A stretch of DNA of 62,104 nt, the filler included, from Asterionella formosa (taxonomy: Eukaryota): NCBI GenBank assembly GCA_002256025.1. It is 15 parts of 15 records of this genome, joined end to end, with 100 filler letters (N's around TTAATTAATTAA, not from the genome) between each part and the next. Parts side by side here need not be neighbours in the genome. Positions count along the whole stretch, not along the records: positions 58,070 to 62,104 come from NKIB01013759.1; 14 more parts are not named here. One strand, written 5' to 3'. Position numbers and translations under genes: made by a program. Positions 12,634-62,104 of this stretch are shown here, in pieces (positions within the stretch are counted from its first letter, which is position 1; each line of letters opens with the position of its first letter). The notes beneath the pieces were generated by a model. The model made no database searches. It was given only the letters and a program-made list of their open reading frames with translations, and had not been told where the DNA came from.

Positions 12634-12832
12634 GTGATCACGTAATAGCTATAGTGATGATCAGGAATGCATGCATGATACTCTGATCAAATAATGAACG
12701 TGATGTATTCAGATAATATATAGATATATTCAAGTAAGCATTTTGATGTATTCAACTAATTCATGTGATCCATTCAAAATCAACTAGGCTTATTTACGTG
12801 ATGGTCACTTCACGTAATACACGGCTTAGATG

Positions 12833-18473: not shown

Positions 18474-18518
18474 ATTGCAGATTGCAGATTGCAGATTGCA
18501 GATTGCAGAATGCAGATC
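18474..18518. repeat. Heptamer tandem repeat (ATTGCAG)n, ~6 copies
   Basis: Seen directly. Lies next to the point where the Copia ORF loses homology to the copy at 41513-45553. Confidence 0.9.
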
Positions 18519-18547
18519 AGAACCTTCATCAGTAGAAGCATCAACCG

Positions 18548-20626
18548 GACACTGAAGATGTTGGTGATTGCCTTTTCATTAAACCATACTTCTCCCCATT
18601 TTGGAAGATCAGCCTTAATATTAGTGACCATGGATCCACCATTTGTGGCCAGGTGCATGCTTCCGTTGGTTGCCATTCGAATGTTTTCAACCATTTTTGG
18701 ATTGCAAAAGACTGTGATACTTGATTGATTATCCAATAGTATCCAGTCACGCATCTCAGATGCTTGGTAAAATTGTAGTTTCATATGAGCTCCCGCCCAT
18801 CCAAATTGATTGACATTTGCTTGTTGTGAAGCTTGTGATGATGGCGGGTTGTTGGAATTAACAGAGGTAACTGTACTCGTGTCGGATGTATTAGCCTGCA
18901 CCTGTGCATGGCTTTGTTGGGCCTTGTTGATTGCCCATTCCTCATTGGGTTTATTCTTATCGCGACATGACGGTGATTTATGTCCAGCTCTTCCGCAGCA
19001 GTAACATTTTCCTTCTAACTGTGCGAACGATAAGTTCACATCTTCAACTTCCTTCCTTGTGTCCTTTTGTTCTCTGTCTTTATTAGGGTCCCCTGGTTTC
19101 TTGTGGCTGTTGGGTTTATTTGTTATGTCGAACCTGTGGTGACTGATAACATTATTTGATTCGGTGATACTCTTTGGGTATTGATCATTGCCGAGCGACT
19201 GTTGAGTGTTCAGCCCGGTCATAATTGATCCGTATTTGGCTTTTTCCGCATTATCGAGGTATAAATATGCCATAAATTGACTGAAAGCTTGTTCACGAAA
19301 TTTATCTCGTAGCTTGATGTCGGTCTCGTTGTATCCGTCCATGGCTTCAACAAACTTTGTGAGGATAATGGGTCCTCCCATCTGTGACTTGAGCACATCT
19401 TGTACCAAACGAAATCTCTTGGTGTAGTCTTGTAGACTTTCTCCTTCCTTTTGCTTTGTGAATAAAAGCGTTCTCATCGCATCTAAAATGATCGACATTG
19501 AATATCGATTCTCTTGAAAATTTAGTGCGTGTTCTTTAATTGCCATAAGCAATGCTATTGGGATATTTTTGATCATATTGTAATCGGATCTTGCTTCAAT
19601 TTTGTTCTTTATGGCCTTGTTGCATCTTTCCCAGAGCAAAGCATAGTATGCCTTGGTATTGTTGTTTTCGTAGGCCCGTAGCGTTTTACTGTAGGTGTCA
19701 TAATCAGCCTTAAACTCAATCTCGTATTGCCGATTCTCTGCAGTGCGATCTTCTTCTGTTGTTGCAATGCTCACTTGCATACTTGGCGTCCATGCCATTG
19801 TGCTCATCGGTTCTAATAACTCAAGCGTGGATCCTATGTTGTTGCCATAATCGAAAACTTTCTTGATGTAGTTGATGAAGTACTCAGTAGTAGTCTCATA
19901 ATCAGATGCCTGCTTTGCTGATGCGAGGTAGTAGTTATAGTCATTTACTGACTTCTTGATGGTGTGAGAAGCATTATTGCTCCCTCCCTTGGCTTGAAAC
20001 TTGCCCTAGGCCTGAGCCTTCTTGGTGACCTTTCCTCTGCCACTCATGATGCGCCTTGTGCGACTTCTTCAGACTCTGGATGGTCTGGTACCCTCAAATC
20101 TCGTCTCTGGACTCTCAACGGTCTACCTGTTGTTGATTGTGATCTTACGGCGCTTCCTGGCCGGCTAATTCTACTAAAACTGTTGAAATTGCGTCCCGAA
20201 GCACTCTATGCTTTCTTGTATCCTGTAAGGACACGTCAGGGACCAAATAGGCTGTAGATATGAACAACGATGTTGCAGTTATCGATTGTAATCGTTGCTT
20301 CCTAAGAGTTTTAGTAGAATTATGGGTTTTTATTGCCGATGTAAATTGTTTTCGAATTCTGAGTTTTCTCTGGTACCATATTCTTTTTGATTCATTCGAT
20401 TCAATATGTAGTAGGTAATTCATACTGGGATTTTTCTTTCCTTCAATAATTTTTCCAACATCTGTAGGGCGGTGTGGTATGGTGGTATGGTGGTATTCTT
20501 CTTCGTTTCTTGTACAGAAGGCAGCTTCTCCTAGCGAAGGGGAGGTTGAGACTTGGGAGGAGGCATCTGATTCTTGTTCCTTTTGAGTGTTGTTACAACT
20601 GGTCCGCTAAAGTTGATCGTCAAGAG
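18548..20626 (-). mobile_element. Truncated Ty1/Copia (CoDi-like) element: 5' internal region, gag and protease
   Basis: gag runs from ATG 20047 with one in-frame TAG. Contains CYCCGRAGHKSPSC and protease-like WILLDNQS. Closely similar to 41513-42930; homology ends at TNIFS. Confidence 0.9.
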
Positions 20627-20694
20627 TTAGGGTTAGGGTTAGGGTTAGGGTTAGGGTTAGGGTTAGGGTTAGGGTTAGGGTTAGGGTTAGGGTT
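20627..20694 (+). repeat. Telomeric repeat (TTAGGG) x11.3 running to the contig end
   Basis: Perfect array with the G-rich strand pointing toward the end. Confidence 0.95.
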
Positions 20695-20849
20695 NNNNNN
20701 NNNNNNNNNNNNNNNNNNNNNNNNNNNNNNNNNNNNNNTTAATTAATTAANNNNNNNNNNNNNNNNNNNNNNNNNNNNNNNNNNNNNNNNNNNNACCTCT
20801 TATCATTAGAATGCTGGAAAGCTAGCTGTATACCTGTACCGGTACGCGT

Positions 20850-22645
20850 GTGTTTCGTCCCTACAATGGAAGACGAGTGGTACGAAGACCAATACTGCGC
20901 ATCAAGCAACGGAACGGAGCGCTGGCTTGCGGACACTGGGGCTACCACGCACATCACTAGACTGACAAATACATGACAAACGTCGAAAATGTAAACGTCT
21001 CGGTCATTGTCGGTGACGGTAAAGAGGTGGTATGCACGAAACGAGGTGATATTCTGATTACCAACAAGACGTGTTCCATGTTACTACGCAAGGTACTCTA
21101 CACTCCTCACTTCCACAAGAATATCGTCAGCATCGGGCAATTTGTCAAGAACGGAGGGTGCGAGGCACGCATGAAGGGGTCTGAGTTGAGTCTACATAAG
21201 GAAGGGTACGACAACGAACTAACCTTTTCTTGTGAGGATCAAGGCGTCCTTTACTACTTCAAGGGAAAACGTACCCTACAGTCCGAAACGGTCTTGTCTA
21301 TTCACGACTCGACAACAAACCGTACACCTGATCCTACTCCAACGAATACCAAGACAGTGACGCAACTTCCTACGGCATAAACTACCAAGAAACCAACGCA
21401 AATTGACATCAACGAGGCCCACGACAAATACGGCCACATCAGCGAGGCATCCCTTCGCGCAACGCTAAAGTCCCTCGGTATTGAACCTACGGGCAAGATT
21501 CAGTCGTGTGAAGGCTGCGCACTAGCTAAGGCAAAGGCCAAAGCGGTACCTAAAGTCACGACCCTCAAGGCCTCTACTCCTGCTGAACGATTGTACGTGG
21601 ACATTTCAGGTCCCTACGAGAAATCTCTAATTGGAAGCAACTACTGGATTCTATTCGTGGATCAGTACACAGGCAAGGCATGGAGTTATTTTGTTAACAA
21701 GAAAAGTCTTTTGGCGAGCATCGCAGATGCCCTATTGACTACACTCAAGTCAGCGGGCTATGTAGTACGCTTCCTACGCTGGAAAATGCCGGTGAAAACA
21801 TGACCAGTCTAAGTATCGTCTGCACCACGCAGGGTATTCAGATTGAGTATACTGCCCCCCATACTCCTCAACAGAACTGAGTCGTGGAACGAAATTTTGT
21901 GACAATACAAGACCGAGCATGTGCCTCCATGTTCAGCGCAAAATTGTCAGACGAATACTAGGGGCTACTGTGGACCAAGAGTGTCCACATGCACATGCGA
22001 CTAACGAACTCTGTCGCTAACTCGAATACGGGAAAATGCCCCGATTGGCTTTTCTACGGCTTTCAGCCTAAGATTTATCCTCACCTGATTCAGTTTGGCA
22101 GGGTGGGGTGGGCTACGATTCGGACGCCAAGGCAGAAACTAACCCCAAAAAGTGTCAAATGTGTCATGCTTGGATACAGCCATGACCACGCCGGTGATAC
22201 CTACCGCATGTACAACGTTACAACGAAAAAGGTCTTCAACACAAGAGACCTTAAATGGGCCGACTGGCATGGAAATGCCAAACCCACAGCGGACATGGAC
22301 GAATTCACCACAGACGGATCCGGTATAGACGAGGAATTCGACACTCCTACTAAACCTACCAACGCAATGCCTCCTGACGAGCAAGGGGCTACTACACTAC
22401 TACCAACGAAACAAGACGATCCCAGTACTCCCAAGGGAGTGAGCTTTGCAGATTCCGTCGCAGGTGGTATGAATACGAACGAGCCTCGTACGAATAATGC
22501 TACGAAATCTACAAAGCTCGATCGAGAAATGAATAGGCTATCTACAGGCTTTGTGACCTCACCTACTCCTACTCGTGCAGGCACACGTCAGCAATCATCC
22601 GCAGCACGCACACTAATATTGGATGATGATGTCATTATTCATGAT
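20850..22645 (+). mobile_element. Degenerate Copia pol fragment (protease, GAG-pre-integrase, integrase)
   Basis: WLADTGATTH, HDKYGH...CEGC, YVDISGP...ILFVDQYTG and KCVMLGYS...YRMYN, with several stops and frameshifts. Interrupted at 22646 by another LTR. Confidence 0.88.
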
Positions 22646-22807
22646 TGTTCTACTAAGTGAGTGGAGTTGAGTTGTCAGTTGAGACTTGAATGTCTGACAA
22701 CACAATGAATATCTATATACAAATTTGGGAAGAGAACCTTAATAATTGGTCATGTGAATGATTACAAGATAGATCAAATAAGCTCACAATAAGGTTGGAT
22801 TAGAACA
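22646..22807 (+). mobile_element. 5' LTR (162 bp) of a nested Copia element
   Basis: TGTTCTA...TAGAACA inverted termini. A gag ATG follows ~100 bp later. Confidence 0.75.
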
Positions 22808-22909: not shown

Positions 22910-24840
22910 ATGACTGAAGACAAAGGTGAGACCATTCGCCTTGTGAAGTTTGATGGCGAGGACGCCAATTGGCATGAGTGGAGTGTGAAGACACTTGCAC
23001 CAGCCAAGACAAGAGGATTCAAGAATGCCTACATGAAGGATACCAATCCATGAAGCGATGCTGTCTACGAAACTACAGACAAAGACGATGTCAAGAAAAT
23101 CTACGAGATGAACGACCGCGCATACCAGCTTCTGATTATGAGTTGCACTGGGATTGCGTTTGGTTTGGTTAACCAAGCCAAGACAAAGAATCATCAAGAC
23201 GGCGATGCATTCCTTGCTTGGACCTACCTCAAGGCTCGCTATGTTCCTAATGCTACAAGCGACTTAATCCAACTGTCAGGACAGTTCAACAAGTGCATCT
23301 GTGAGGGGAAGACGCAAGACCCAGACGAGTGGTTCATCCAACTCGAGTTGTTGAGGAATCGAATGGCGACGATTGATTCTGCTTACGAAAAGAAGGATCT
23401 CGAGATGATTGCCCACATACGTGATAAACTACCTAAGGAGTAATCAGAAGTGGTAACAATGGTTGAGGCTATGCCCTCCCTAACACTAGAAGACCTTAAG
23501 GCCAAGATACGTGCGTTCTTCAAACGCAAGTTTAAGAACGAAAAGTCGGATGGCGAACTTGCTCTTGCTGCCTTTGGAACTAAGTTCAAAGGACTCTGCC
23601 GCTCTTGCGGCAAGCAAGGACACAAGGCAGCCGATTTTCGAGTCAAGAACAAGACACACGGCGACAGAAACAGGCCTCCTCCGAAAGGCGTCAAGTGTTT
23701 CAATTGCAACAAGCCTGTCGGACATATCGCAAAAGATTGCCCTGAACCCAAACGAGAACGTACTACAACGAAAGAGACCGGCATGTTTGTTGGCATGTGT
23801 ACGATTGACTACGAAGACATCGAAGCAAACGAAAAGAAACAAGATATGAATGACAAGTACAACGAGAACGACGATAAAGAGTGGACTTTTGTCGGTATTT
23901 GCGAGGAAATTATTGATGATTGTGATGTAAAATTTAATAATAAAGAGTTTTGTGACTCTGCTGTTGCTCCTCGCTCTATTGCCCTACAGGAGAATTGGGT
24001 CGCTGATACTGGAGCTACCGCCCATATCACAATGAGTGACGTCGGTATGACAAATGTACGCCCAGTCAGTGTCACAGTTGTCGTCGGCGATGGCTCGGAA
24101 ATCAAATGCACAAAACGCGGTGACATCAAGCTCACCAACGGAGAGAAGACTTTGACATTGAAGGATGTCCTGTACACGCCTAAGTTTCACAAGAACGTCG
24201 TCAGTTTGGGCGTCCTAATCCGTGACGTTTTTGACCTTTCAGTCACAGGGTCTACAATGACAGTTAAGAAAGGTCGTGGAGGACATATTTCATTTAACAG
24301 AGAGACCAATGGAGTTCTCTATTATTTTAAAGAAAGTTGCGCGAGTTGTGCCGATGTCGTATCCATGATTATTGCCCCATTGTCCCAGGGGGCCGATAGT
24401 ACCAAAAACTTGTCTACAAACACCCATACAGTTATGAGTGGGGAGGACAAAATGAAGTCACAGGATATCAACCAGGCACACGATATCTACGGGCACATTG
24501 GGGAAGCCGCACTACGTGCTACCTTCAAAGCACTGAAGATAGAACTTTCTGGTACCCTCCGGTCATGTGACGGATGCTCTAAGGCAAAGGCGAAAGCAAA
24601 AGCAGTTTCAAAAGTGTCGACTGTACAGGCCGAAAAACACGGTGAACGGATTTTCGTGGACACTTCAGGGCCGTACAAAAAGTCCATTGTGGGAAGCAAT
24701 TACTGGATACCGGTACTTGTTGTCGATCAATTCTCTGGAAAGTCATGGAGTTTTTTTGTTAAGAAGAAGAATTTACTATCCAAAATTGTGGACGAGCTAC
24801 TTATCAAGCTATTTGCAGCAAAATATGTCATCAAGTATCT
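22910..24840 (+). mobile_element. Nested Copia gag-protease-integrase ORF with two premature stops, truncated by the contig end
   Basis: MTEDKGETIRLVKFDG..., two zinc knuckles, WVADTGATAH, HDIYGH...CDGC and FVDTSGP. In-frame stops at 23051 and 23441. Confidence 0.9.
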
Positions 24841-25329
24841 NNNNNNNNNNNNNNNNNNNNNNNNNNNNNNNNNNNNNNNNNNNNTTAATTAATTAANNNN
24901 NNNNNNNNNNNNNNNNNNNNNNNNNNNNNNNNNNNNNNNNGCGGAACTTTGCCTTTTCTGGTACTAAGCAGCATGTCTCTGGAGTTGACCGAAGTACCTG
25001 GGTAAATAAGCAAACAAATCCCCATGTGTCCCCTGTGTTGTTTAAAACAGTAGAATAAACTAAAATCGAAAAGGAAGAAAAATTCAGAAAAGAATATTCA
25101 AATCAATGGAAATTTGTGCGTACGTACATAGATTCCTTTTTGAAATAGGTAAATATATATAGTGACACTATACATCGCAATATGTATATATGATACCACA
25201 GATTTTGTTTCTTATATAGTACTACAACCCGGCGGCTCGGCAAATATTTAAAAGTGCAATCCACGAGTGGTAGCAGGTACCAGTCCCACACAGGCTTAAA
25301 CAAGGTGCAGTTAGTTGCAGGAATAATGG

Positions 25330-32770: not shown

Positions 32771-32805
32771 TTAGGGTATTGTTAGGGTTAGGGTTAGGGT
32801 TAGGG
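32771..32805 (+). repeat. Short interstitial TTAGGG array (4 tandem copies plus 1)
   Basis: TTAGGG at 32771 and four tandem copies at 32782-32805. Confidence 0.85.
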
Positions 32806-35065
32806 CTAACAGTTCATCTATTTGCAAACGACCCGGTTGTCTTGACAAATATTCATAGTGCACTCTAGTAGTGGTACGCCTATGTGAAATGATAATCTTC
32901 TACACCCACCACCTTTGTAATGAATAGGGTTCCGTTTATTTTTTTTAGGCTACGCTTATGCATACTACTGCTCAAATATATCTAGATGTTCGTAGTTGGT
33001 GTGGAGGAGAGATGGGTGACGAGTTCGTGCAATCGGGTTGAGGACAACGTAATTACAAGTAACTGAGGGTTTAATTAGATTATCTATTTCTGTTGTGTAT
33101 CGGATATACCGGGATCTGCGCACTTANNNNNNNNNNNNNNNNNNNNNNNNNNNNNNNNNNNNNNNNNNNNTTAATTAATTAANNNNNNNNNNNNNNNNNN
33201 NNNNNNNNNNNNNNNNNNNNNNNNNNACCAAGTCCAGTCACCACCAATTCATGCATTCAATCCATCATGGAAGCCACGCACACTTTCCTTGCTTGTCTCA
33301 TATTTTCACCTTTCTTTTTCCTGTGAGAGTTGATCCATTTACGTCATCCACACGGCCAAAAGTCAATGAGTCAACAGTAGCTACAGTACACTTCAGCCAC
33401 CATCCATATCTTGGCCTTTTCAACACGAAATAAATTATAAATAATCAGATCCCACCTTTCAAACTCTAGCCATTTTGTTGGCATAGTAATAAGATGCTAT
33501 ACCCTGTGTGAATCCTCGGGATGAACCCATCGAGAGAACTCCGAGTCAATCCACTACTTCTGCCCCTTGATTGCTGTGCGTGTGAGCTCGTGGATAACAA
33601 CGGAACTACGGAATGATACATTTCGAAGTTGCCACTGACGACGTTAAGTCTTTCCCATTGTCTTTTTCAGAGCGTTGTAATGCATTGCTTCTCTATTGTT
33701 AGTTAGGCAGACGAACCAGGTACTAACTAGCAGGCATAAACAACAAGGACTGAAGTAGTGGCTGGCTGCTGGAGAGAAGTGAGAAGCACAAGTGAAACGA
33801 AAGAAAATGTGCTGCGTACTACAATCAATGGGCTCAGGGCTCAGGGCTCAGTATTATCTTAGTACGGTAGCCTACGTGTAGTAGCTATCCAGCCAATCAT
33901 TTCCAATGTATCCATGGCCCAAGGTCAAGGTATATGAAGGTGAAGCAAGGAGAGGGTCGCGATGAACTGAGGCTGTGTTCTTTTCTTGTGCTCTGACTCA
34001 GTGGCAAATATATTGAGTTACAAGGTATAGAATGATTTAACAGTACTGTATATAATGTTTGTTCACGTAGGTCTAGGCACGGCATTATTATTCCGCCCGC
34101 GGTAATAAAAGGTATACCTGGTACCAGTAGAGTAGCATTCTGGAGTACGAGGTATACCGGTACCGGTAAGTGCATACCGGGATTTGAATTATTTTATCTG
34201 GGTGCAGCCAGAGTTGGTTATTATGTAATCTGGGTTCCCTTCATGGGGAAGGCAGTTTTTAGTTGAAGTTTGAGAATCTTTTTGTGGCCAGCGAGTTCTG
34301 GGATGGAGAGAGTGTATGTGGAGGGTTGTAGTGGCGAGACAAACGCTTCTTGCTTTGCGTGGTTATCAGTAGAAGGGAGGGAAGGATGGTGGGGAGGAAG
34401 ACAGCGAGGTGGGGTAAAGGGTGCCAAAGGCGTTGGGAAAGAAATCGCATGGCGCTTGAAATAAGCTCCTAGGCGGGGCTGTCCAGCGGTAATTGCTCTT
34501 TCGAGCTTTGACTTTGAGCTTTTGCAAAGGATTTCTTCAAGGAGGAGTCGGAAGAAAGGAGATGTCGAAGTCCATGGGACGACCATCGGAAGGAGTGGTG
34601 GGGGGGGGGGAAGAGCGGCGGCGGAGGAAGCGCCACACTTGTAGTAATTACCTGCAATCTGATTTCCAGTATGGAGGTGAGCTTTTTGAATGCTCTGTGT
34701 GAAATTCTGTATGTCTTTTCGAAAGCAATCTTGTGATCGCTCAGCTTTATGTGTGCTTTCTTTGTGGACTTCATTGTTTGGATGAGTCATAGTGCCATTT
34801 GTGGCGTTGCCTTTGCCTTCTGGATGAGTGTTATTGTTCCTCTGCTTCCTTAGCTAAACGACAGAGGAAGAAATCCAGATCGCTGCTGTCATCATCTGTT
34901 CCAAAACCAAAATCATCATTGCTGTCAAGTAACTCAAGATGCGACAATATGATGATTCATGCAATGGTGTGTTTTAATATATAATACAGTATAAAATAGC
35001 TTCTTTGTTGGTTAGCTCGCTTTCCGAGGTGGCAGGAATCGACCTGCTTTAGTCCCTTGAGTTAT

Positions 35066-35149: not shown

Positions 35150-35431
35150 CTTCACAACCTCCACAATTGTCAAGTTGTTTAACAATAAAATTTACTTAAT
35201 AATTTTAGGAAAAAGATATTTCGTCCCCCTATTTCGATATTTCGTCCCCCTCTTTTTATTAACCCTTAAACCCTAGCCTACATAGCGCCTTCATATAAAC
35301 CACCAATTATTTTTTGCTAGTACACGGAAATCAGTTGGCTTGATGACACTGCCGTGACGGCTGCTACTCATACTACACATGCACATCATTGTGTTCAAAT
35401 TGACTCTGATGGCCTCAACCAAAGCCCAAAT

Positions 35432-36725
35432 CCCGCTCTAGCTATCGTCGCGTCATTCGCTTACCTACTGCCCACAAATTTAGCATAAATGTCAATTTTA
35501 GCCTACTATTGCCCATCATATAAAATGAATTTTGTATATTTCCTATCTTCACCTCGAAAATTGCCAAAGGTCCGATATTGCCCATCATTAAAATATATTT
35601 TATATATTTCATATGTTCGCATTTTGGCAAGACAACAGACACCAATTGCCCCTCGGTTTTCCAGCGCTGGGATTGCCGAAATCGGCAAGGGGTCTACTTA
35701 AGGAAAATAATTTATATACTATTCAGATTCTAATAATTTATATCTAGAATTCACCTCGTTTTTGTTCGTCTCCTGAAAAGTGGACTCCGGCAATTTTACC
35801 TTTCACCATGCCAATCGTCGTCCATCATGACCGGTTTGAAGCGAAATCGGTTCCGCGATGACGCCAGTAGCGATTCTTTGCCTAACGGATGCGGTTGATT
35901 GTTGGATTGCTTTTTTTCCGAGGTATTCATGTAGTCGCATCGTCCATATTTCGTCGGACGAACGATGATATCGATACATCTGATGTTGGTGGCAAGTTTT
36001 TGCTCCGGTCATGTACGTATGTAATGATGCTTAACGGATATTCTACCGGTAGCGGTTACCGGCAGTCATCTAGTCTACATACGTACGTGGTACTAAAAAC
36101 AACCATGCATGGTTTAAGCTATGCTTCAACGCTTACTTTGAACACGTAATAATATTATCTCTGTAGACTCGGTATTATTTTTACGAGACCTGAAATGTTG
36201 AATTATATCGTTCACATATTCATTGATTTTACGTATCGTATGCCCGATTTCGTCCTCACAAATATAGTTCTCACTCTATCTTGCCTGCCTTTGCTCTATT
36301 CGGGCTTGCAATAGGCAACGTTCGTCTTTATTTGATCCCATCTTCTGCTGCTTGTTATGCTAGTTGAAGCGGATCGGTGAGTACAACAGTGAAACACTGA
36401 ATGTGGATTGTAGATCGTATTTATCGACTTTCCGATTTGATTGCTTCCGTGGTTTGTTTTGATTGCTTCCGTCGTTGTTTGTCGTCACGCACTGTCGTTT
36501 TTTTTTCGATTGTATATATCTACATAAGAACCAATGCATTTATCAATGACTACTCATTGAAGATGTGGTATTGTGTCGTTGTTGATCGTATTTGTTGATT
36601 TGTATAGGCGTTGACAATGATGTCAATATTGCTTGATGTGCCCCATATTGCCCTTAAATAAAAATTACTTAGAGACTAAAAATTACTTAGAAGTACCCGA
36701 ATGGCAAGACGATAGCTGGAGCGGG
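35432..36725. mobile_element. Non-autonomous DNA transposon, 1294 bp, ~28-bp imperfect TIRs, AWWT flanks (Sola1-like?)
   Basis: Ends CCCGCTCTAGCTATCGTCGCGTCATTCG and CGAATGGCAAGACGATAGCTGGAGCGGG, flanked by AAAT and AATT. The left end recurs at 61990 after AATT. Confidence 0.75.
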
Positions 36726-36951
36726 AATTGCTCAAGTAACAACCATCCCTAGAAGTGCTGGGTGCTCCATAGCTTTGACACCTACATGGCAGAATCCCTT
36801 GACCCTAACCGAATCCTAATAGTATAGTAGTCTAAGCAGTTCATAATGGTCTCTAGACTCTAGAATAGATCCTTAGCACTATGTGTACATGATCTTTAGA
36901 AGGCGTGCTCCCCTTACCCTAGCACCCCAAATTCTGAAACAATATCTTTCT

Positions 36952-41512: not shown

Positions 41513-44500
41513 GCAATATTGCTTCTCAATCAATCAAGAAGTCAGTCAATGACTATAACTACTACCTCAGATCATCGAAGCAGGCATCTGATTATGAGAC
41601 TACTACTGAGTACCTCATCAATCATATCAAGAAAGTGTTCGACTATGGCAACGACATAGGAACCGCGCTCGAGTTATTAGAACCAATGAGCACATTGGCA
41701 TGGAAGCCAAGAATGCAAGTGAGCATTGCAACAACAGAAGAAGATCGCGCTGCAGAGAATCGACAATATGAGATTGAGTTCAAGGCTGACTATGACACCT
41801 ACAGTAAAAGGGTACAGGCCTACGAAAATAATAATACCAAGGCATATGCGTTGCTCTGGGAAAGATGCAACAAAGCCATGAAGAACAAGATTGAAGCAAG
41901 ATCCGATTACAATAGGATCAAAAATAACCCAATAACATTGCTTATGGCAATTAAAGAACACGCATTAAATTTTCAGGAGAATCGATATTCAATGTCGATC
42001 ATTTTAGATGCAATGAGAACGCTTTTATTCACAAAGCAAAAGGAAGGAGAAAGTCTACAAGACTACACCAAGAGATTCCGTGTGGCACGTGATGTGCTCA
42101 AGTCACACATGGGAGGACCCATTATCCTCACCAAGTTCGTTGAAGCCATGGATGGATACAATGAGAATGACATCAAGCAACGAGATAAATTTCGTGAACA
42201 AGCTTTCAGTCAATTTATGGCATATTTATAACTCGATAATGCCGATAAAGCCAAATACGGATCAATTATGACCGGGCTGAACACTCAGCAATCACTCGGC
42301 AATGATCAATACCCAAAGACCATCACCGAATCAAATAATGTTCTCAGCAACCATCGGTTTGACATCACAAATAAGTCTAACTACAAGAAACCAGGAGATA
42401 ATGATAAAGAGAGGAAACAAAAGGATGGAGGCAAGGAAGACGAAGATGTGAACTTATCATTTGCACAGTTAGAAGGAAAATGTTACTGCTGCGGAAAAGC
42501 AGGTCACAAATCCCCTTCGTGCCGAGACAAGAATAAACCCAAAGAGGAATGGGCAATTAACAAGGCCCAAAGCCATGCACAGGCACAGGCTAATACATCC
42601 GACATGAGTACAGTTACCTCTGTTAATTCCAACAACCCGCCGTCATCACAAGCTTCACAACAAGCAAATGCCAATCAATTTGGATGGACTGGAGCTCATA
42701 TGAAACTACAATTTTACCAAGCATCTGAGATGCGTGACTGGATACTATTAGATAATCAATCAAGTGTCACAGTCTTTTGCAATCCAAAAATGGTTTAGAA
42801 CATTCAAATGTCAACCAACGGAAGCATGCACCTGGCCACAAATGGTGGATCCATGGTAACTAATATGAAGGCTGATCTTCCAGAATGGGGAGAATTATGG
42901 TTTAATGAAAAGGCAATTACAAACATCTTCAGTTATGCCGAAATGGCAGATAGGTACAGAATTACCTACGACTCTGAGAAAGAAGATGCATTCATTGTTC
43001 ATTTGCCTGACAAAGCAGTTCGATTTGAAAGAATTGGGATGAACTTATATGTTTTCAAGCCAACTACAAGAATTAGAGCGGAGAATGCTCAAATGTTAAA
43101 TACACTTGAAGAAAACAAAACATTTTACACTGAACGTCAATTTCAGAGAGCTAAGCGAGCTCGTGATCTATTTCATGCCTTGGGTACACCATCAATTAAC
43201 GATTTCAAGGCAATAATTCGTATGAATACGATCAACAATAATCCAGTGACTACCGATGATATCAAAATTGCAGAGAAAATTTTTGGACCTGACATCGGAA
43301 CACTAAAAGGCAAGACAACTCGTCGCAAGCTGCTGCCAGTTGTGAACGACTACATCGAGATTCCTAAGGAGCTTATTCAAGCTCAACGCGAAGTGACTCT
43401 TTGCATGGACGGAATGAAAGTCAATGGACAATCATTTCTCACAACAATTTCTCGAAACATTATGTACAGGACAGCGCAATGGGTCAAGAATCAGACAGCT
43501 GAAGTCTATCGAGATGCTTTGATTCAAGTATTCCGTGTTTATAATACCGGAGGATTTAAAATTACAACAATCCACTGTGACAACGAGTTTCGACCTTTGA
43601 TGGAATAAATTTCCAATGAATTTCAAGTCACTATGAACTACGCAAACCCACAAGAACATGTTCCCGAAGCGGAGCGAAATAATCGAGTGATTAAAGAACG
43701 CGTGCGCGCAGCTTATCATCGATTACCTTTCAAACATTTGCCGCGACTGATGATTAAGATTCTAGTGACAGAATCTGCAAGGAAACTGAATTTCTTTCCG
43801 GCAAAGAACGGGATATCCCCGTATTACAGTCCTCGTATGATTCTACATCAACGAAACCTGGACTATGCTCGACATTGCCAGTATACATTTGGCACTTATG
43901 TCCAAGCACATGAAGAACCTGTGTTTTCAAACACTAATGCACCTCGCAGCCTAGATTGCATTTTTCTACGCTACAATGACAATGTGCAAGGAGGTCATGA
44001 ATTGTTACACCTACCTACAAACTCATTGATCACTAGACGAACAATTACTCCTCTACCACTTACCCCAGCAATCATGAATCAAGTACACGCCCTTGCTGTG
44101 CAGGAGAATATGCCAGATGGTCTCAAGAAATCAAATCGAACGGGAAAACTATTTTATGATAGTGCTTGGATTGCAGGAGTGGATTATGATAATGAAGCAT
44201 TTGAAGATGCACAAGATGAAGATTATGAAGATCAACATGCTAGTGATGAAGAAAGCAATGATGAAATTCTCGGAGAAGAAGACTATGATGAAATGACTCC
44301 GGATGAAATATATGAAGCAGAACAGCTCGAATTAAACGACAATACTCAAGAGGATGACCCTGAACCTGACGAGGGCAACAATGAGAATAATATTGAAATG
44401 AATTCAGACGAAATCCAAGATGAGGATGAAGAGCCAGCAAATGAAACTGAAAATGAAGAGGCATTGTTAGAAGTCAATCCAAGCACTCAGGATGACTCAA

Positions 44501-48880: not shown

Positions 48881-49793
48881 GAGTAACTTTCCGAGGTCTA
48901 GTTACCAATGTAGAAACAAAGCTACCGGTAATAGCTTGATTGATCTGACAGGTAGGGATAGTGGGACTGCATCACATACAATAAATTCTACACACGAGAG
49001 TACCACAGGACGGAATCTAGAATCCGTTCGTATGCCATACTTGATGTCGAAATGGGTCAGCACATTACAAAAAATGAATGTGTGAAATCATACATGAATT
49101 TGTACGGTTGACCGGTTATACATAGTTCCCAATGCACCTGTGACTAAGAAGTAGCAGGACCAATATGGTGCTATTTCGAGGTGTTGTTGGATATGATTTT
49201 GCATCATGACAACAAATGGCAATTCAGATCGAAATCACAATGCGGTTTGGGCCTGCTAAGATTTAATTGGCACCAAATAGTCCAAATGCACAAACATACT
49301 GATTTGATCTATTAGGTTATTCGATCATCATGAAGAAGACACCTAATTCAAATGGAAAGTAAAATTTGGTTTGAGAGGACTGCTGACAGATTAACTAGAA
49401 AAATATTATGATTTGCATCGACTTATATGAACAAGGACCAGCATCATGCTTTGAGTTGTTGAATAAATCTACCATAAAAATAAAAGAAGAATTCACATGC
49501 ATGGAAGCAAAACGATAATCGATTTGGGGTTTGCTGACAGATTATGTAAAATCATTTTTATGTTGGTCGAGTTTTGCTCAACAAAGTATTGTCATGAGAA
49601 AGAAGAAGAATTCACATGGAATGAGAAACTCGATTTGGATCCAGTGAGCATTCAATCGAAAACAAAAAATTTGGTCAGGTTTGTGTCAACTAGNNNNNNN
49701 NNNNNNNNNNNNNNNNNNNNNNNNNNNNNNNNNNNNNTTAATTAATTAANNNNNNNNNNNNNNNNNNNNNNNNNNNNNNNNNNNNNNNNNNNN

Positions 49794-52700
49794 ACCTCTT
49801 ATCATTAGAATGCTGGAAAGCTAGCTGTATACCTGTACCGGTACGCGTGTGTTTCGTCCCTACAATGGAAGACGAGTGGTACGAAGACCAATACTGCGCA
49901 TCAAGCAACGGAACGGAGCGCTGGCTTGCGGACACTGGGGCTACCACGCACATCACTAGACTGACAAATACATGACAAACGTCGAAAATGTAAACGTCTC
50001 GGTCATTGTCGGTGACGGTAAAGAGGTGGTATGCACGAAACGAGGTGATATTCTGATTACCAACAAGACGTGTTCCATGTTACTACGCAAGGTACTCTAC
50101 ACTCCTCACTTCCACAAGAATATCGTCAGCATCGGGCAATTTGTCAAGAACGGAGGGTGCGAGGCACGCATGAAGGGGTCTGAGTTGAGTCTACATAAGG
50201 AAGGGTACGACAACGAACTAACCTTTTCTTGTGAGGATCAAGGCGTCCTTTACTACTTCAAGGGAAAACGTACCCTACAGTCCGAAACGGTCTTGTCTAT
50301 TCACGACTCGACAACAAACCGTACACCTGATCCTACTCCAACGAATACCAAGACAGTGACGCAACTTCCTACGGCATAAACTACCAAGAAACCAACGCAA
50401 ATTGACATCAACGAGGCCCACGACAAATACGGCCACATCAGCGAGGCATCCCTTCGCGCAACGCTAAAGTCCCTCGGTATTGAACCTACGGGCAAGATTC
50501 AGTCGTGTGAAGGCTGCGCACTAGCTAAGGCAAAGGCCAAAGCGGTACCTAAAGTCACGACCCTCAAGGCCTCTACTCCTGCTGAACGATTGTACGTGGA
50601 CATTTCAGGTCCCTACGAGAAATCTCTAATTGGAAGCAACTACTGGATTCTATTCGTGGATCAGTACACAGGCAAGGCATGGAGTTATTTTGTTAACAAG
50701 AAAAGTCTTTTGGCGAGCATCGCAGATGCCCTATTGACTACACTCAAGTCAGCGGGCTATGTAGTACGCTTCCTACGCTGGAAAATGCCGGTGAAAACAT
50801 GACCAGTCTAAGTATCGTCTGCACCACGCAGGGTATTCAGATTGAGTATACTGCCCCCCATACTCCTCAACAGAACTGAGTCGTGGAACGAAATTTTGTG
50901 ACAATACAAGACCGAGCATGTGCCTCCATGTTCAGCGCAAAATTGTCAGACGAATACTAGGGGCTACTGTGGACCAAGAGTGTCCACATGCACATGCGAC
51001 TAACGAACTCTGTCGCTAACTCGAATACGGGAAAATGCCCCGATTGGCTTTTCTACGGCTTTCAGCCTAAGATTTATCCTCACCTGATTCAGTTTGGCAG
51101 GGTGGGGTGGGCTACGATTCGGACGCCAAGGCAGAAACTAACCCCAAAAAGTGTCAAATGTGTCATGCTTGGATACAGCCATGACCACGCCGGTGATACC
51201 TACCGCATGTACAACGTTACAACGAAAAAGGTCTTCAACACAAGAGACCTTAAATGGGCCGACTGGCATGGAAATGCCAAACCCACAGCGGACATGGACG
51301 AATTCACCACAGACGGATCCGGTATAGACGAGGAATTCGACACTCCTACTAAACCTACCAACGCAATGCCTCCTGACGAGCAAGGGGCTACTACACTACT
51401 ACCAACGAAACAAGACGATCCCAGTACTCCCAAGGGAGTGAGCTTTGCAGATTCCGTCGCAGGTGGTATGAATACGAACGAGCCTCGTACGAATAATGCT
51501 ACGAAATCTACAAAGCTCGATCGAGAAATGAATAGGCTATCTACAGGCTTTGTGACCTCACCTACTCCTACTCGTGCAGGCACACGTCAGCAATCATCCG
51601 CAGCACGCACACTAATATTGGATGATGATGTCATTATTCATGATTGTTCTACTAAGTGAGTGGAGTTGAGTTGTCAGTTGAGACTTGAATGTCTGACAAC
51701 ACAATGAATATCTATATACAAATTTGGGAAGAGAACCTTAATAATTGGTCATGTGAATGATTACAAGATAGATCAAATAAGCTCACAATAAGGTTGGATT
51801 AGAACAGAAGGTTTTATTACACAGAGCTTGTCTAGAAAGAGCTAGCATTGCAGCCAGACTGCAGAAGAATTTAACATGCTTGCAAGCGGATCAACTTCGT
51901 TTTGCAACATGACTGAAGACAAAGGTGAGACCATTCGCCTTGTGAAGTTTGATGGCGAGGACGCCAATTGGCATGAGTGGAGTGTGAAGACACTTGCACC
52001 AGCCAAGACAAGAGGATTCAAGAATGCCTACATGAAGGATACCAATCCATGAAGCGATGCTGTCTACGAAACTACAGACAAAGACGATGTCAAGAAAATC
52101 TACGAGATGAACGACCGCGCATACCAGCTTCTGATTATGAGTTGCACTGGGATTGCGTTTGGTTTGGTTAACCAAGCCAAGACAAAGAATCATCAAGACG
52201 GCGATGCATTCCTTGCTTGGACCTACCTCAAGGCTCGCTATGTTCCTAATGCTACAAGCGACTTAATCCAACTGTCAGGACAGTTCAACAAGTGCATCTG
52301 TGAGGGGAAGACGCAAGACCCAGACGAGTGGTTCATCCAACTCGAGTTGTTGAGGAATCGAATGGCGACGATTGATTCTGCTTACGAAAAGAAGGATCTC
52401 GAGATGATTGCCCACATACGTGATAAACTACCTAAGGAGTAATCAGAAGTGGTAACAATGGTTGAGGCTATGCCCTCCCTAACACTAGAAGACCTTAAGG
52501 CCAAGATACGTGCGTTCTTCAAACGCAAGTTTAAGAACGAAAAGTCGGATGGCGAACTTGCTCTTGCTGCCTTTGGAACTAAGTTCAAAGGACTCTGCCG
52601 CTCTTGCGGCAAGCAAGGACACAAGGCAGCCGATTTTCGAGTCAAGAACAAGACACACGGCGACAGAAACAGGCCTCCTCCGAAAGGCGTCAAGTGTTTC

Positions 52701-53833
52701 AATTGCAACAAGCCTGTCGGACATATCGCAAAAGATTGCCCTGAACCCAAACGAGAACGTACTACAACGAAAGAGACCGGCATGTTTGTTGGCATGTGTA
52801 CGATTGACTACGAAGACATCGAAGCAAACGAAAAGAAACAAGATATGAATGACAAGTACAACGAGAACGACGATAAAGAGTGGACTTTTGTCGGTATTTG
52901 CGAGGAAATTATTGATGATTGTGATGTAAAATTTAATAATAAAGAGTTTTGTGGCTCTGCTGTTGCTCCTCGCTCTATTGCCCTACAGGAGAATTGGGTC
53001 GCTGATACTGGAGCTACCGCCCATATCACAATGAGTGACGTCGGTATGACAAATGTACGCCCAGTCAGTGTCACAGTTGTCGTCGGCGATGGCTCGGAAA
53101 TCAAATGCACAAAACGCGGTGACATCAAGCTCACCAACGGAGAGAAGACTTTGACATTGAAGGATGTCCTGTACACGCCTAAGTTTCACAAGAACGTCGT
53201 CAGTTTGGGCGTCCTAATCCGTGACGTTTTTGACCTTTCAGTCACAGGGTCTACAATGACAGTTAAGAAAGGTCGTGGAGGACATATTTCATTTAACAGA
53301 GAGACCAATGGAGTTCTCTATTATTTTAAAGAAAGTTGCGCGAGTTGTGCCGATGTCGTATCCATGATTATTGCCCCATTGTCCCAGGGGGCCGATAGTA
53401 CCAAAAACTTGTCTACAAACACCCATACAGTTATGAGTGGGGAGGACAAAATGAAGTCACAGGATATCAACCAGGCACACGATATCTACGGGCACATTGG
53501 GGAAGCCGCACTACGTGCTACCTTCAAAGCACTGAAGATAGAACTTTCTGGTACCCTCCGGTCATGTGACGGATGCTCTAAGGCAAAGGCGAAAGCAAAA
53601 GCAGTTTCAAAAGTGTCGACTGTACAGGCCGTACTACACGGTGAAGGAATTTTCGTGGACACTTCAGGGCCGTACAAAAAGTCCATTGTGGGAAGCAATT
53701 ACTGGATACTTGTTGTCGATCAATTCTCTGGAAAGTCATGGAGTTTTTTTGTTAAGAAGAAGAATTTACTATCCAAAATTGTGGACGAGCTACTTATCAA
53801 GCTATTTGCAGCAAAATATGTCATCAAGTATCT
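49794..53833 (+). mobile_element. Near-identical duplicate of contig 20795-24840 (nested Copia elements; LTR at 51645-51806)
   Basis: Same start and end. The differences I found are a few substitutions and a 6-bp indel in the last 900 bp. Confidence 0.95.
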
Positions 53834-54678
53834 NNNNNNNNNNNNNNNNNNNNNNNNNNNNNNNNNNNNNNNNNNNNTTAATTAATTAANNNNNNNNNNN
53901 NNNNNNNNNNNNNNNNNNNNNNNNNNNNNNNNNTGGGGGGTAGAGGGGATTCACATGATTGTGACGACATTCCCGGCTCAAAATCTTGCACCGAAATAGG
54001 TACTGACAAGGTTTCAAATGACCATATGTTTGGCGGATACTATGGGCATCCTTAGTGCTTATCCCTTCCATTGCTATGAACATTAATGGAGTTGTTACTA
54101 AAAAGTGTGAATGGCAGTGTATCTAATTAATACACCATCAATGTAGGAACAGGCAAGGTTGCCTAGAGGTCAGGATGCGAATTGACTTGCCGATGGGTCG
54201 AATGTTAATACACATGCTATCTAGAAATAGATGTTTCAAATGCTACAAAAATATTCTGGACACTTAGCTATAGAAAGTACTTTGCCATATGTACTGTACA
54301 TAGTTCGCTGCATTCAGTATTCGCCAGCTGTTGTTTTCATTGATTTGGAATCAAATTTTCTCGACACTTGTTGCGATTCAAGACCTTAGCGACCGTAACT
54401 GATTTAAAAACTGGGCACCAACAGGCTTAGTGGCAGGCAACAGTTTCTCACCCGCCGTACCGTGATCTCCCAGGGAACAAACATATAAATTAAATGTTTT
54501 CAATAAGAGGGAAAAATCCCCGAAGGCTCTTTTCCAACCAGACATGAGTTTGTTTATGTCAACGTAATCTCCAGAGTTCAAGGAATCGAGCATGCTTGCC
54601 ACACCGGACCAGGCGTACAAGTATCGAATAGGCTTTTGATCGGGTACCTACACTGTTCATCACAAACTCAAATAGTGA

Positions 54679-57969: not shown

Positions 57970-58674
57970 NNNNNNNNNNNNNNNNNNNNNNNNNNNNNNN
58001 NNNNNNNNNNNNNTTAATTAATTAANNNNNNNNNNNNNNNNNNNNNNNNNNNNNNNNNNNNNNNNNNNNTGGACTCTTTTTGAATTCAAAGTGAAGTATC
58101 TAACTAGAAGTAGTAGTATTTGTTGAATATATGAGCTTATTTGTTAATCCTTGTGTGTAACTCGTTCTCCAAGTCGACACCAAAGTATACAATGAGAGTT
58201 AGTCGAGTTCTCTCATTATTGAGTTCTGATACATATATGATATAACACTAACCCTATATACATCTGTATTGATGCGCAAGATCGCTCACCAGGTACTGTT
58301 ACCTCGTACCGTTATGCATGTAACATGAATGCCACACAATCAGGATATCAGTATAGTAGACTAGTTAAGTACCAGTACTGGTAGTATAGTCTACTGTAAC
58401 AACGAAAGGTACCAATCATGTTTACTTTTAAGACATGATCGCTCCATGGTGCTCTCGCGCGATCTTCGGAAGTTGAAGTCCTTGACTAATTCGACCCCTG
58501 TGCGTCGTCGCCCATGCATGATCAGCCATCATCAGAGCACAGCCTTCCGCGTGTCCTTCGCCCTTTATTTCACCTCGCTGTGAGTTCACAAATCTCCTTT
58601 CCTGTTCCTGTTGACGACTGATATCTCCCCACATCTTGTCTAGAAATCTACTTGTCGGAACAACGTCGCTGACC

Positions 58675-60084
<1,410 letters not shown>

Positions 60085-60167
60085 TTGGCTGGAAAGAACA
60101 ACATTTTATTGTTGTTCTTGTATGAAAATAAAATTGATGTTACTGCCATACTATGCATTTCTAGGCA

Positions 60168-61562
60168 CTAAAAACTGTGTCTGAAAATTGTCAACAGCCC
60201 CATCACATCCTTGCCACCATTTTGTCGCAGCGCAAGACATTGCATTTTGACAACGGTGAAGTCATTGTCGAGTGCAAGTTGTCGAATATAGCCTTCCTGA
60301 TGCGCAAATCTAGCACATTCTCGCAAGGCAAAGGGATGATTGTTATCATCTGCGTTCAAATATTCCGTCGAGAAGGCAAAAACACCGCTCTCATTCAGTG
60401 CTGCCTTGACTTTCTTAAACAACTCACCCAAATCCCCAATGTAGCAAAAAACATCACAAGCAAAAATAAGATCAAACTTGTCGTCGCTTGCATCCAGCAC
60501 GCGTGTGACATCTCCAACTATGAGAACTTCGTAGCACTCCCTCGCGTAGGCCTTTTCAATCATTTCAGGTGAAAGATCTACGCCGATCAAGTGATCGGCA
60601 CAGTCTCGGAAGGCCATTCCTGACAAGCCAGTTCCGCATCCAAGGTCGCAGGCGCGTTTGGCCCATGATGTCTTTCTCGTCTTGATAGTCATATCAACCA
60701 ATTTTCTGAGTTTGATTGGTGTCTCGTACTTGAGTTTGCCCAATAGCATGTCGTCAAAGTTGGCAGCAAAGGTAGAATAAAGCGACTTGATGTAGTCTTC
60801 TGGACATCTATCAACTATTGTTTCATTGGCTGAAAGGGTTGCCAACCAAAATTGAGCCGTCTCGCGCAGATTGTGAGAGGACGGAAATGATCGGAAGGCA
60901 TCTTGAAAATGAGAAATGCATCTGGGTCGATTCGTCTCAACTGGCTGTAGCTTGCGAAATAACGTTCCAAGCCGAAGGTGAATTCTGCCGATATAGAGCT
61001 GGTCCCCATCCCCTATTCGTTGCAGCGTGTGTTGGATATTTTTGTAAAACAACAATTCCTTTTCAGAAAGATCTCGCTTTGATGGATGTTTTGACGAGTT
61101 CTTTCCGATCAACTTGCTTTCCAGCAGTCGCTTGGCTTCGTCCTCTCGAGGTTCTACCAACAAACGTACAAGAGCCCCAGCAAAAGCACTTGGCGTAATG
61201 CTGGAATGTTGATTCCAAAGAGCTACAGTCTTCCGAAGGGCCTCCATTCTTTCGTTGTGATTATTGGATGCCATGGAAAGGGCAAAATAACCTGCTGGTT
61301 TGTCTGGGGCCATCTTGATAGCTCGTTTGGCCAGGAATATTGCTTCAGGCCGTTTGGATTTGTCGTTTTTGGCTTGCTCTGCAATGAAACTCGCCAGTCT
61401 CGAAACTGCACTAGCTTTCAGTGGTATCTCTTGTAATTTTGCTCTCAGTGATTCTTCTTTTGCTGTGGTAGACATTGTCATTGGCGATGACTTAGATTCC
61501 GTCATCTTGACAACGACAACAAAATTAGTGAAGATACGGACGTTCCACAAGGAACAAATCAT
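60168..61562 (-). CDS. Class I SAM-dependent methyltransferase with a TPR-like N-terminus (COG4976-like)
   Basis: YIKSLYSTFAANFDDMLLGKLKYETP, DLGCGTGLSG, GVDLSPEM, DVFCYIGDL, FAFSTE and RFAH. Confidence 0.88.
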   Translation of the reverse strand: MICSLWNVRIFTNFVVVVKMTESKSSPMTMSTTAKEESLRAKLQEIPLKASAVSRLASFIAEQAKNDKSKRPEAIFLAKRAIKMAPDKPAGYFALSMASNNHNERMEALRKTVALWNQHSSITPSAFAGALVRLLVEPREDEAKRLLESKLIGKNSSKHPSKRDLSEKELLFYKNIQHTLQRIGDGDQLYIGRIHLRLGTLFRKLQPVETNRPRCISHFQDAFRSFPSSHNLRETAQFWLATLSANETIVDRCPEDYIKSLYSTFAANFDDMLLGKLKYETPIKLRKLVDMTIKTRKTSWAKRACDLGCGTGLSGMAFRDCADHLIGVDLSPEMIEKAYARECYEVLIVGDVTRVLDASDDKFDLIFACDVFCYIGDLGELFKKVKAALNESGVFAFSTEYLNADDNNHPFALRECARFAHQEGYIRQLALDNDFTVVKMQCLALRQNGGKDVMGLLTIFRHSF

Positions 61563-61583
61563 GGCAATATTACAAATTTAAAA

Positions 61584-61773
61584 GAGCATCTCCACCGTTC
61601 CGACCAAATACCAAGCCAATTAAAATTGCGGGTCATTACACGTATTCAAGCATCACATTGGTCGAAAAAGCAAAATAATTTTAGCCACCACATCGACCAA
61701 GAACAAATTTGCTTTGATCTTGGTAAACTATGACCCTCTCATTTTATTGACCAAAATATCAGGTATTTGGTCG
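61584..61773. mobile_element. Tourist/PIF-like MITE remnant
   Basis: Starts GAGCATCTCCA. Inner inverted repeat CGACCAAATACC (61601-61612) / GGTATTTGGTCG (61762-61773). The outer right TIR is absent. Confidence 0.45.
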
Positions 61774-61788
61774 ATTAGAATCTGACCC

Positions 61789-61987
61789 TTGCTGAAGGCA
61801 ATACACGCCCGAGGTGGTCTCTTGCCTGCGAGTATACATGTGTTCGAGGCTGGGTGGCGCGAGTAGGTTGACCGTACGAGTGGCGCCCCCGGCGCTGCGA
61901 GAAGGTCACCCTACAAGTGCCATCCCAGCCGAGTACACATTTATACGAGAAGGCAAGTAGCCGCCGAGAAGGGTATTGTTGAGGCAA
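61789..61987 (+). other. ~200-nt rod-like hairpin with periodic tandem G.A motifs (structured RNA or ssDNA element)
   Basis: The arms pair along their length, with G-T wobbles valid on the plus strand only. Five CGAG on the left arm sit opposite four CGAG and one CAAG on the right arm. Confidence 0.8.
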
Positions 61988-61989
61988 TT

Positions 61990-62104
61990 CACGCTCAAGC
62001 TATCGTCGCCTCATTCGCTTACCTACTGCCCACAAATTTAGCATAAATGTCAATTTTAGCCTACTATTGCCCATCATATAAAATATATTTTGGATATTTC
62101 CTAT
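61990..62104 (+). mobile_element. Left end of the AWWT-flanked TIR element, copy 2 of 35432-36725
   Basis: AATT|CACGCTCAAGCTATCGTCGCCTCATTCGCTTACCTACTGCCC..., near-identical to 35432-35545. Confidence 0.85.

Follow-up and report, generated by a model that had tools for sequence, protein, structure and literature searches.

The hairpin of 199 nt at positions 61789-61987 of the window, as we call the whole 62,104-base stretch of Asterionella formosa DNA analysed here, appears to mark the end of a transposon and not a new gene. The transposon is most likely of the Helitron2/Helentron type, with an exceptionally long stem-loop phased by mismatches, and we think it probable that the hairpin is the terminal stem-loop of a high-copy, non-autonomous Helitron2/Helentron (HLE2, HINE-like) rolling-circle transposon of a freshwater eukaryote; transposase class and HLE2 membership we infer from the architecture of the ends alone. 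An earlier sequence-only reading had offered two candidates, an undescribed non-coding RNA and a folded single-stranded recombination site. The rod forms part of a mobile element, and the best reading of it is a site where one strand folds on itself; to that extent the second candidate stands, whereas a stand-alone RNA finds no match in Rfam and the RNA contigs that cover the hairpin are copies inside transcripts. The features on which the argument turns are as follows.

61583..61787, no strand assigned: unrelated high-copy MITE-like repeat abutting the hairpin end, placed by a rise in depth, loose contig ends and inverted repeats
61788..61790, no strand assigned: terminus of the element, placed by loose contig ends and differing flanks; by the Helitron2 convention its 3' end, reading ...CAGCAA on the minus strand
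61789..61987, plus strand: rod hairpin, terminal stem-loop of the element, placed by folds and CGAG counts; the same architecture is found in loci L001 and L003 and partly in L002
61985..62017, plus strand: subterminal inverted repeat (3'-ATIR or subTIR in the Helitron2 convention) directly inside the hairpin, placed by its match to the copy at 35427
61988..62104, plus strand: start of the non-coding body, cut by the end of contig and window; L002 matches along 35427-36313 (890 nt, 95%)
35427..36730, minus strand: second family copy of ~1.3 kb, without the hairpin, bounded by inverted repeats; its longest stop-to-stop frame is 87 aa
36731..36765, minus strand: degenerate remnant similar to the final ~30 nt at the hairpin end, with ~70% identity to the L001 junction as judged by eye

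Fifteen contigs of ~4 kb make up the window, with a spacer of 44 N, TTAATTAATTAA and another 44 N between one and the next (4064-4163, 8226-8325 and so on to 57970-58069), and neither distance nor neighbourhood carries any meaning across a spacer. The spacers are also the source of a "109-nt repeat every ~4140 nt" and of most of the long "palindromes" returned by repeat detection. The contigs are eukaryotic: they hold H2A and H2B-type histones, a two-exon delta-aminolevulinate dehydratase (ALAD), Ty1/copia pieces, an HMG-box protein and TTAGGG telomere repeats, the last at 20619-20694, reaching a contig end, and at 32786-32808. The hairpin lies in the last contig (58070-62104), 117 nt from its end and upstream of a minus-strand methyltransferase gene (60171-61577); the ALAD gene precedes it. 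Several other repeats are present in the window. Two pairs of stretches, 20695-20994 with 49694-49993 and 24714-24940 with 53707-53933, belong to contigs that are 100% identical over the stretches compared, and these duplicates share Ty1/copia fragments and identical ORFs (20961-22657 and 49960-51656). A sequence of ~1.4 kb occurs in two contigs in opposite orientation (18551-19980 and 41513-42933, 85-95% complementary), and the former is overlapped by a minus-strand open frame of 535 aa (18401-20005) that has no Pfam match and probably belongs to another repeat family. An AT-rich tandem repeat of 22-nt units at 12494-12646 is self-complementary over 12530-12632, and a fragment of a DDE_1 (pogo/Tigger-type) transposase (Pfam E 1.4e-16) lies at 5424-5954, on another contig than the hairpin.

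What sets this hairpin apart from an ordinary palindrome? The minimum-free-energy structure of the plus strand of 61789-61987 is one unbranched rod with the terminal loop CCC, with RNA and with DNA parameters alike, as the sequence-only reading had drawn it. As RNA the fold has an energy of -111.3 kcal/mol, compared with -66.95 +/- 4.09 for shuffled sequences (z -10.84), and as DNA -49.2 (z -6.31); in each case none of 200 shuffles folded as well. The minus strand forms a similar but weaker rod under both parameter sets (RNA -85.6, z -6.09; DNA -42.7, z -5.02), which agrees with the strand preference that had been proposed, and the near-consensus copy L001, folded as DNA, gives -50.9 for the plus strand (z -6.90) and -44.1 for the minus strand (z -5.81). 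The 72 predicted pairs of the plus strand comprise 64 Watson-Crick pairs, eight G.T and no A.C, so that the helix mismatches are indeed mostly G-T on that strand. The longest unbroken run of stem is 7-8 bp, and mismatch loops recur every 15-19 nt. A blast of the window against its own opposite strand detected no second hairpin of this kind, the other top matches being the AT-rich tandem palindromes at 12530-12632, and a blast of 61561-62104 against the window likewise detected no second copy.

The mismatch loops are built from one motif. CGAG occurs nine times, at 61810, 61829, 61845, 61860 and 61877 in the left arm and at 61898, 61930, 61946 and 61965 in the right arm, where the copies at 61898, 61946 and 61965 extend to CGAGAA; a CAAG at 61914 faces the remaining left-arm CGAG. 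These are the positions that had been read from the sequence. They form five 2x2 loops of CGAG opposite CGAG, G.A/A.G on the plus strand and C.T/T.C on the minus strand. The motif 5'-CGAG-3' opposite itself forms sheared tandem G.A pairs in RNA and in DNA. Mononucleotide shuffles contained 1.2 CGAG on average and at most 7 among 20,000, and CTCG, the complement that a palindrome would have, is absent from the hairpin. Random palindrome decay cannot produce CGAG/CGAG loops, and the earlier contention that this is not a decayed palindrome is upheld. The two departures from regularity are private to the window. At 61915, within the CAAG, A>G is the majority in all four sequencing runs compared (in the DNA run X2, 70460.8 of 81349.5 depth units) and G is present in 3/3 other copies, while at 61941 T>G is the majority in the runs, is found at 3/3 loci and restores a C-G pair where the window has a C/T mismatch (61838/61941). 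The family majority of G at both positions indicates that the founder had five perfect CGAG/CGAG loops.

It is nevertheless conceivable that the hairpin is a functionless, accidental quasi-palindrome of the founder copy, arising for example from a duplicated and inverted end, that was amplified along with the element. The copies are 95-97% alike, so every feature could descend from one master; the variation among them resembles neutral CpG decay; and shorter or missing hairpins occur. An accident accounts poorly, though, for five loops with the same four letters on both arms and no CTCG, a density of CGAG beyond that of any shuffle, for eight G.T pairs against zero A.C, and for a hairpin that sits exactly between subterminal repeat and terminus, which is the place of the HLE2 stem-loop in the descriptions available. 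Quasi-palindromes also tend towards perfection by template switching, of which one copy, L002, provides an apparent example, and uniform mismatches therefore argue for constraint on the master. We consider the accidental origin unlikely.

The left limit of the element is sharp. Contigs of two DNA runs and two RNA runs (X15 and X17) were aligned on 61000-62104, where X2 alone contributed 1302 contigs. Over the gene part the X2 depth is the 163 of a single contig; the summed depth climbs ~25-fold or more between bins 61740-61776 and 61777-61813, and reaches values of 8x10^4 to 3.5x10^5 from 61777 onwards. Loose ends were placed at 61788, 61789 and 61790 by 19, 32 and 33 contigs (84 among those listed) with a consensus agreement of 0.35-0.39, as expected of a sharp repeat boundary with many unlike flanks. 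Parts of 61600-62104 are present in 20 of the 24 runs among those listed, from 15 studies, mostly freshwater metagenomes and metatranscriptomes, and "organism A" of run X11 has the family too. Scanning metagenomes with a pattern for the hairpin tip returned three short loci of ~1 kb, L001, L002 and L003; viral contigs scanned with hairpin-tip and inverted-repeat patterns yielded no locus, nor did the pattern scan of prokaryote genome contigs. The hairpin is complete in L001 and L003 (95-97% identity), whose left flanks are unrelated, and L002 begins inside it, so the three hairpin ends that can be compared (window, L001 and L003) have three different flanks. Read on the minus strand, those flanks are GGG in the window, TTCC in L001, where it belongs to another copy, and TTTT in L003 (n=3 only), and the X2 flank consensus is A-rich on the plus strand, that is, T-rich after the 3' end.

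The sequence on the other side of this limit is an unrelated, high-copy, MITE-like repeat. Its extent is given by a depth rise from bin 61555-61591, by loose ends "behind" 61786/61787 and by pieces spanning 61583-61722 and 61581-61779, and it contains inverted repeats at 61601-61612 and 61762-61773 and several TTGGTCG/CGACCAA motifs. Its other copies have ~30 extra letters before 61754 (loose-end consensus, 0.79 agreement). The sequence-only reading had placed the hairpin where the right terminal inverted repeat of a MITE should be; this does not survive, as the neighbour keeps its right inverted repeat at 61762-61773, the mate of 61601-61612. A different element abuts the MITE-like repeat and runs rightward off the contig, and the hairpin makes up its first 199 nt.

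Variation among the copies consists mostly of CpG transitions (G>A at 61861, 61878 and 61963, C>T at 61873, in run contigs), the pattern expected for decaying copies, and X2 also holds diverged contigs that are 82-88% alike. Other forms in X2 skip the hairpin tip, for example from 61834 or 61838 to 61942, and are centred within 2 nt of the rod centre at 61888. In L002, positions 104-109 (window 61946-61951) read CTCGCA where the other copies have CGAGAA; this is the exact complement of the opposite arm and turns that loop into perfect helix. It looks like an arm-to-arm correction, by template switch or by mismatch repair within the palindrome, and is what one would expect of arms that pair in vivo or serve as templates for each other. 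The four hairpin copies are too alike for covariation: among the 72 pairs none changes on both sides, two change to G.U and two break, and shuffles equal the observed values. Compensatory change, which had been named as a check of the structure, is thus not seen among copies that are 95-97% alike.

A different interpretation takes RNA to be the selected form, with transcripts of the element, its own or produced by read-through, that fold into a long imperfect hairpin and feed host small-RNA machinery, or evade it through a mismatch every 15-19 nt, or that bind a protein at the tandem G.A. The plus-strand RNA fold, with its z of -10.8, is by far the strongest signal that we obtained; eight G.U without A.C, together with tandem G.A, is a classic signature of a strand-specific RNA helix; and contigs of RNA runs X15 and X17 cover the hairpin. 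However, those contigs come with one figure each and carry no strand, ends or level, and RNA libraries can contain DNA. The depth in X17 is higher on the left arm, and parts of the stretch have no RNA-contig cover, again at one figure per contig. The RNA contigs mostly run into unlike sequence (a share of 0.89 in X17), which suggests copies embedded in other transcripts. A covariance-model scan of 60000-62104 against Rfam (E up to 10) gave seven weak matches, none overlapping 61789-61987, so that no Rfam family of the kind which the sequence-only reading said would remove the novelty was encountered; there is no covariation among the four copies either. In DNA, too, no mismatches are more stable than G.T and tandem G.A. 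The exact placement of the hairpin at a transposon terminus, beside an inverted repeat, is explained by a function at the DNA level. We judge an RNA-level role decidedly improbable.

The element itself becomes apparent from its second copy. The segment 61985-62104 matches 35427-35546 at 94%, and 35427-35459 is the inverted mate of 36698-36730 (33 nt, 85%), the repeat reaching 39 nt at 87% when L001 and L002 are included. All four hairpin copies (window, L001, L002 and L003) run unbroken into this same sequence of ~33-39 nt. On the minus strand of the window the element thus reads from a repeat beginning 5'-TTCCCGC, through a non-coding body of ~1.3 kb and the repeat mate, to the 199-nt hairpin and the end ...CAGCAA-3'. 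Within the body, near the subterminal inverted repeat, there is also an internal direct repeat of ~44 nt (35507-35550 and 35576-35618, and also 62065-62104; 88-92% alike).

Copies of this element lie head to tail. In L001 nothing separates the hairpin end from the 5' end of a second copy, and in the window the remnant at 36731-36765 directly precedes the 5' end of the copy at 35427-36730. From a likeness judged by eye (~70% identity), that remnant is probably the relic of a head-to-tail neighbour, in which case both 5' ends seen (2/2, one resting on the by-eye relic) are preceded by the 3' end of another copy, and neither a free 5' flank nor an empty site was encountered. The L001 junction, folded over 286 nt, gives -71.6 kcal/mol (z -7.67): the two inverted repeats pair and extend the rod by ~22 bp, and the junction ...GCAA|TTCCC... 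falls inside one continuous helix of the predicted fold. GCAA, common to both ends of the element, is the sole feature resembling a direct repeat. Just outside the 35427 copy, the stretch 35400-35426 (GCCTCAACCAA) resembles the reverse complement of the base of the right arm (12/16 by eye), and may be the relic of a collapsed, inverted ("flop") hairpin.

Could the hairpin instead be an independent foldback miniature element, or the end of another class of transposon, for example an attC-like site, lying beside or captured by an ordinary transposon with terminal inverted repeats? The copy at 35427-36730 has both inverted repeats and no hairpin, so an inverted-repeat element can exist alone, and among the 48 ORFs of at least 130 aa in the window none has a RepHel, Helitron_like_N, PIF1-type helicase, HUH or tyrosine-recombinase domain. 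The size of the hairpin is also unlike that of the HLE2 ends described in the sources available. Against this, flanks diverge at 61788-61790 and not at 61987, where every hairpin copy continues; no direct repeat surrounds 61789-61987; and the only recombinase domain in the 48 ORFs is the DDE_1 fragment at 5424-5954, on another contig. The hairpin-base-like stretch upstream of 35427, as judged by eye, makes it more likely that this copy lost its hairpin, and such a copy, together with the tip-skipping forms in X2, suggests that the full hairpin may be dispensable for persistence. Either of these alternatives seems quite unlikely to us.

Three specific candidates were rejected. The hairpin is not a whole foldback or inverted-repeat MITE, in view of the missing direct repeat and the continuation of 4/4 copies into the same element. 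A canonical Helitron (HLE1) needs 5'-TC and CTRR-3' ends, insertion between A and T and no inverted repeats; here the ends are TTCCC... and ...CAGCAA, and inverted repeats are present. A Crypton would have a tyrosine-recombinase ORF, short terminal direct repeats and no terminal inverted repeats. No ORF of that kind is among the 48 ORFs of the window, and Cryptons lack the inverted repeats that this element has (PMC3627910), so the suggestion in the sequence-only reading of a tyrosine-recombinase element with an attC-like site finds no support on either ground.

The layout that remains, one terminal inverted repeat, a subterminal mate followed by a stem-loop, A/T-rich flanks and head-to-tail copies, points to the architecture of non-autonomous HLE2 elements, to which we now return. 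Bao and Jurka (2013, PMC3627910) describe Helitron2 as having short asymmetric terminal inverted repeats, the 5' one 0-2 bp from an end that starts with T and the 3'-ATIR ~20-30 bp from the other end, on the upstream side of a 3' hairpin; their suggestion is that the end point of rolling-circle replication is set when the two repeats pair. Thomas et al. (2014, PMC4067079) describe, for the HINE/DINE-1 elements derived from Helentrons, subTIRs of 12-15 bp at a distance of 2-4 nt from the 5' end and of 38-60 bp from the 3' end; targets are rich in T, and the 3' end has a palindrome. According to HELIANO (PMC11417382), HLE2 elements insert between T and T and have short TIRs, the right one followed by a stem-loop; in "reverse" forms, also mentioned there, the stem-loop is found on the side of the RepHel 5' end. 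In the work of Chellapan et al. (2016, PMC5148889) the repeats lie 20-51 bp away from the terminus, and tandem copies as well as amplicons of joined ends are reported; tandem Helitron insertions (PMC5148889) and circle junctions (PMC4778049) are thus both described. In the present family the asymmetric repeats are found (33-39 nt, 85-87%), the mate beside the hairpin being 61985-62017, and the hairpin fills all 199 nt between that repeat and the terminus. HLE2 insertion falls between T and T, or T and T/C, and leaves no target-site duplication; the hairpin-side flanks to set beside this are the GGG, TTCC and TTTT given above. A 5'-terminal hairpin of the Helitron2 kind, which involves the 5'-ATIR, was not detected, the minus strand of 36640-36740 giving -4.8 kcal/mol (z 0.79), with 158 of 200 shuffles as good.

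To judge from the descriptions available, this is therefore a known layout with unusual parts. The family resembles HLE2 elements and their non-autonomous derivatives (HINE, DINE-1 and Helitron-1N1_CRe of Chlamydomonas) in the inverted repeat at the 5' end and in the subterminal mate followed by a terminal stem-loop, and likewise in the non-coding body, high copy number, T-rich flanks, 5' T start and head-to-tail copies. It differs in a hairpin of 199 nt with ~72 bp, compared with stems of 5-20 bp in a tail of 20-60 nt, in inverted repeats of 33-39 nt compared with 8-18 nt, and in having five phased, identical 2x2 purine mismatches, no detected 5' hairpin and no RepHel partner seen; it is the hairpin size and the phased mismatches that are unusual beside described HLE2 ends. 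The comparison with HLE1 is mixed. In Helraiser termination is signalled by a palindrome of 19 bp that lies 11 nt before the 3' end, DNA has to be single-stranded to be cleaved, only the top strand is used, and circles with precise head-to-tail junctions are formed (PMC4778049, PMC5876387). A palindrome a few to ~11 nt before the 3' terminus and head-to-tail or circle junctions are common to both, unlike the 16-20-nt hairpin, the absence of inverted repeats, the 5'-TC and CTRR-3' ends and the A-T insertion of HLE1. For end recognition by Helitron2 or Helentron transposases we met no experiment in the parts of the literature available, and those that we met concern the bat Helitron Helraiser with its 19-nt hairpin. 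A literal full-text word search for tandem or sheared G.A mismatches in transposon hairpins gave nothing relevant among the matches listed.

The hairpin is also reminiscent of two bacterial systems. Transposons of the IS608 type have subterminal imperfect hairpins that are recognised as single-stranded DNA by an HUH transposase. As in those ends, non-Watson-Crick features set the hairpins of the two strands apart, and intramolecular pairing may take part in end recognition, whereas IS608 has hairpins of ~20 nt at both ends and a Y1 transposase, and nothing points to homology. At attC, recombination acts on one strand of an imperfect palindrome, folded on itself, and unpaired bases determine which strand is chosen. 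The attC sites are 57-141 nt long, are read by a tyrosine recombinase at extrahelical bases and flank bacterial gene cassettes, unlike the present hairpin, around which none of these was found. The IS200/IS605 group, which includes IS608, is mentioned in PMC3627910 and PMC5876387.

How might such an end work? By analogy with Helraiser and with the proposal of Bao and Jurka, a RepHel transposase would nick one strand at the 5' end and unwind the element. Once the end region became single-stranded, the long hairpin would close and the helicase would stall. The subterminal repeat could then act as a splint, one side of which pairs with the 3'-terminal GCAA and the other with the repeat at the 5' terminus, so that a single helix at the base of the rod would hold both transposon ends ready to be cleaved and joined. 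The five identical CGAG/CGAG loops, together with G.T pairs confined to one strand, would differentiate the hairpins of the two strands, possibly serving as a strand discriminator as in IS608-type ends, and mismatches that hold perfect stem runs at no more than 8 bp should limit deletion of the 200-bp palindrome.

The polarity of this scheme is a puzzle. The G.A/A.G loops and the eight G.T pairs, the features with a look of selection, favour the plus strand of the window, where the hairpin occupies the 5' side of the element. With canonical polarity the transferred strand would be the minus strand, whose loops are C.T/T.C, whose wobbles become A.C and whose fold is worse. One reading is that the family runs with the opposite polarity. 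Another takes the complementary strand as the one that folds, or invokes a cruciform or a circle stage, and a third traces the asymmetry to an RNA-level cause. More speculatively, the rod could be a new kind of rolling-circle end, a 200-nt scaffold of single-stranded DNA whose five evenly spaced tandem G.A platforms dock several copies of the transposase or a host single-strand-binding factor and mark just one of the strands, while the adjoining repeat serves as a splint for lining up both transposon ends, a proposal that we put forward tentatively and regard as unlikely in this complete form. Were it true, and were the G.A strand the one that moves, polarity would be opposite to that assumed for Helitron2 elements, and the hairpin would be the first sequence-level handle on how an HLE2 transposase chooses strand and end.

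Helitron2/Helentron elements are widespread. Ends like the present one are missed by tools that expect TIRs of 11-18 nt and short stem-loops, as in the HELIANO settings available (PMC11417382), and such hairpins break short-read assemblies, many contigs ending inside them. The hairpin may show a way in which a 200-bp palindrome can stay stable in a genome. Ten times the 19 nt of Helraiser, it could help in studying how HLE2 ends are recognised, and a strand-asymmetric and very successful family, with hundreds of contigs per metagenome, is a natural substrate for asking whether the role of a terminal hairpin is to stall the helicase, to choose the strand or to align the ends.
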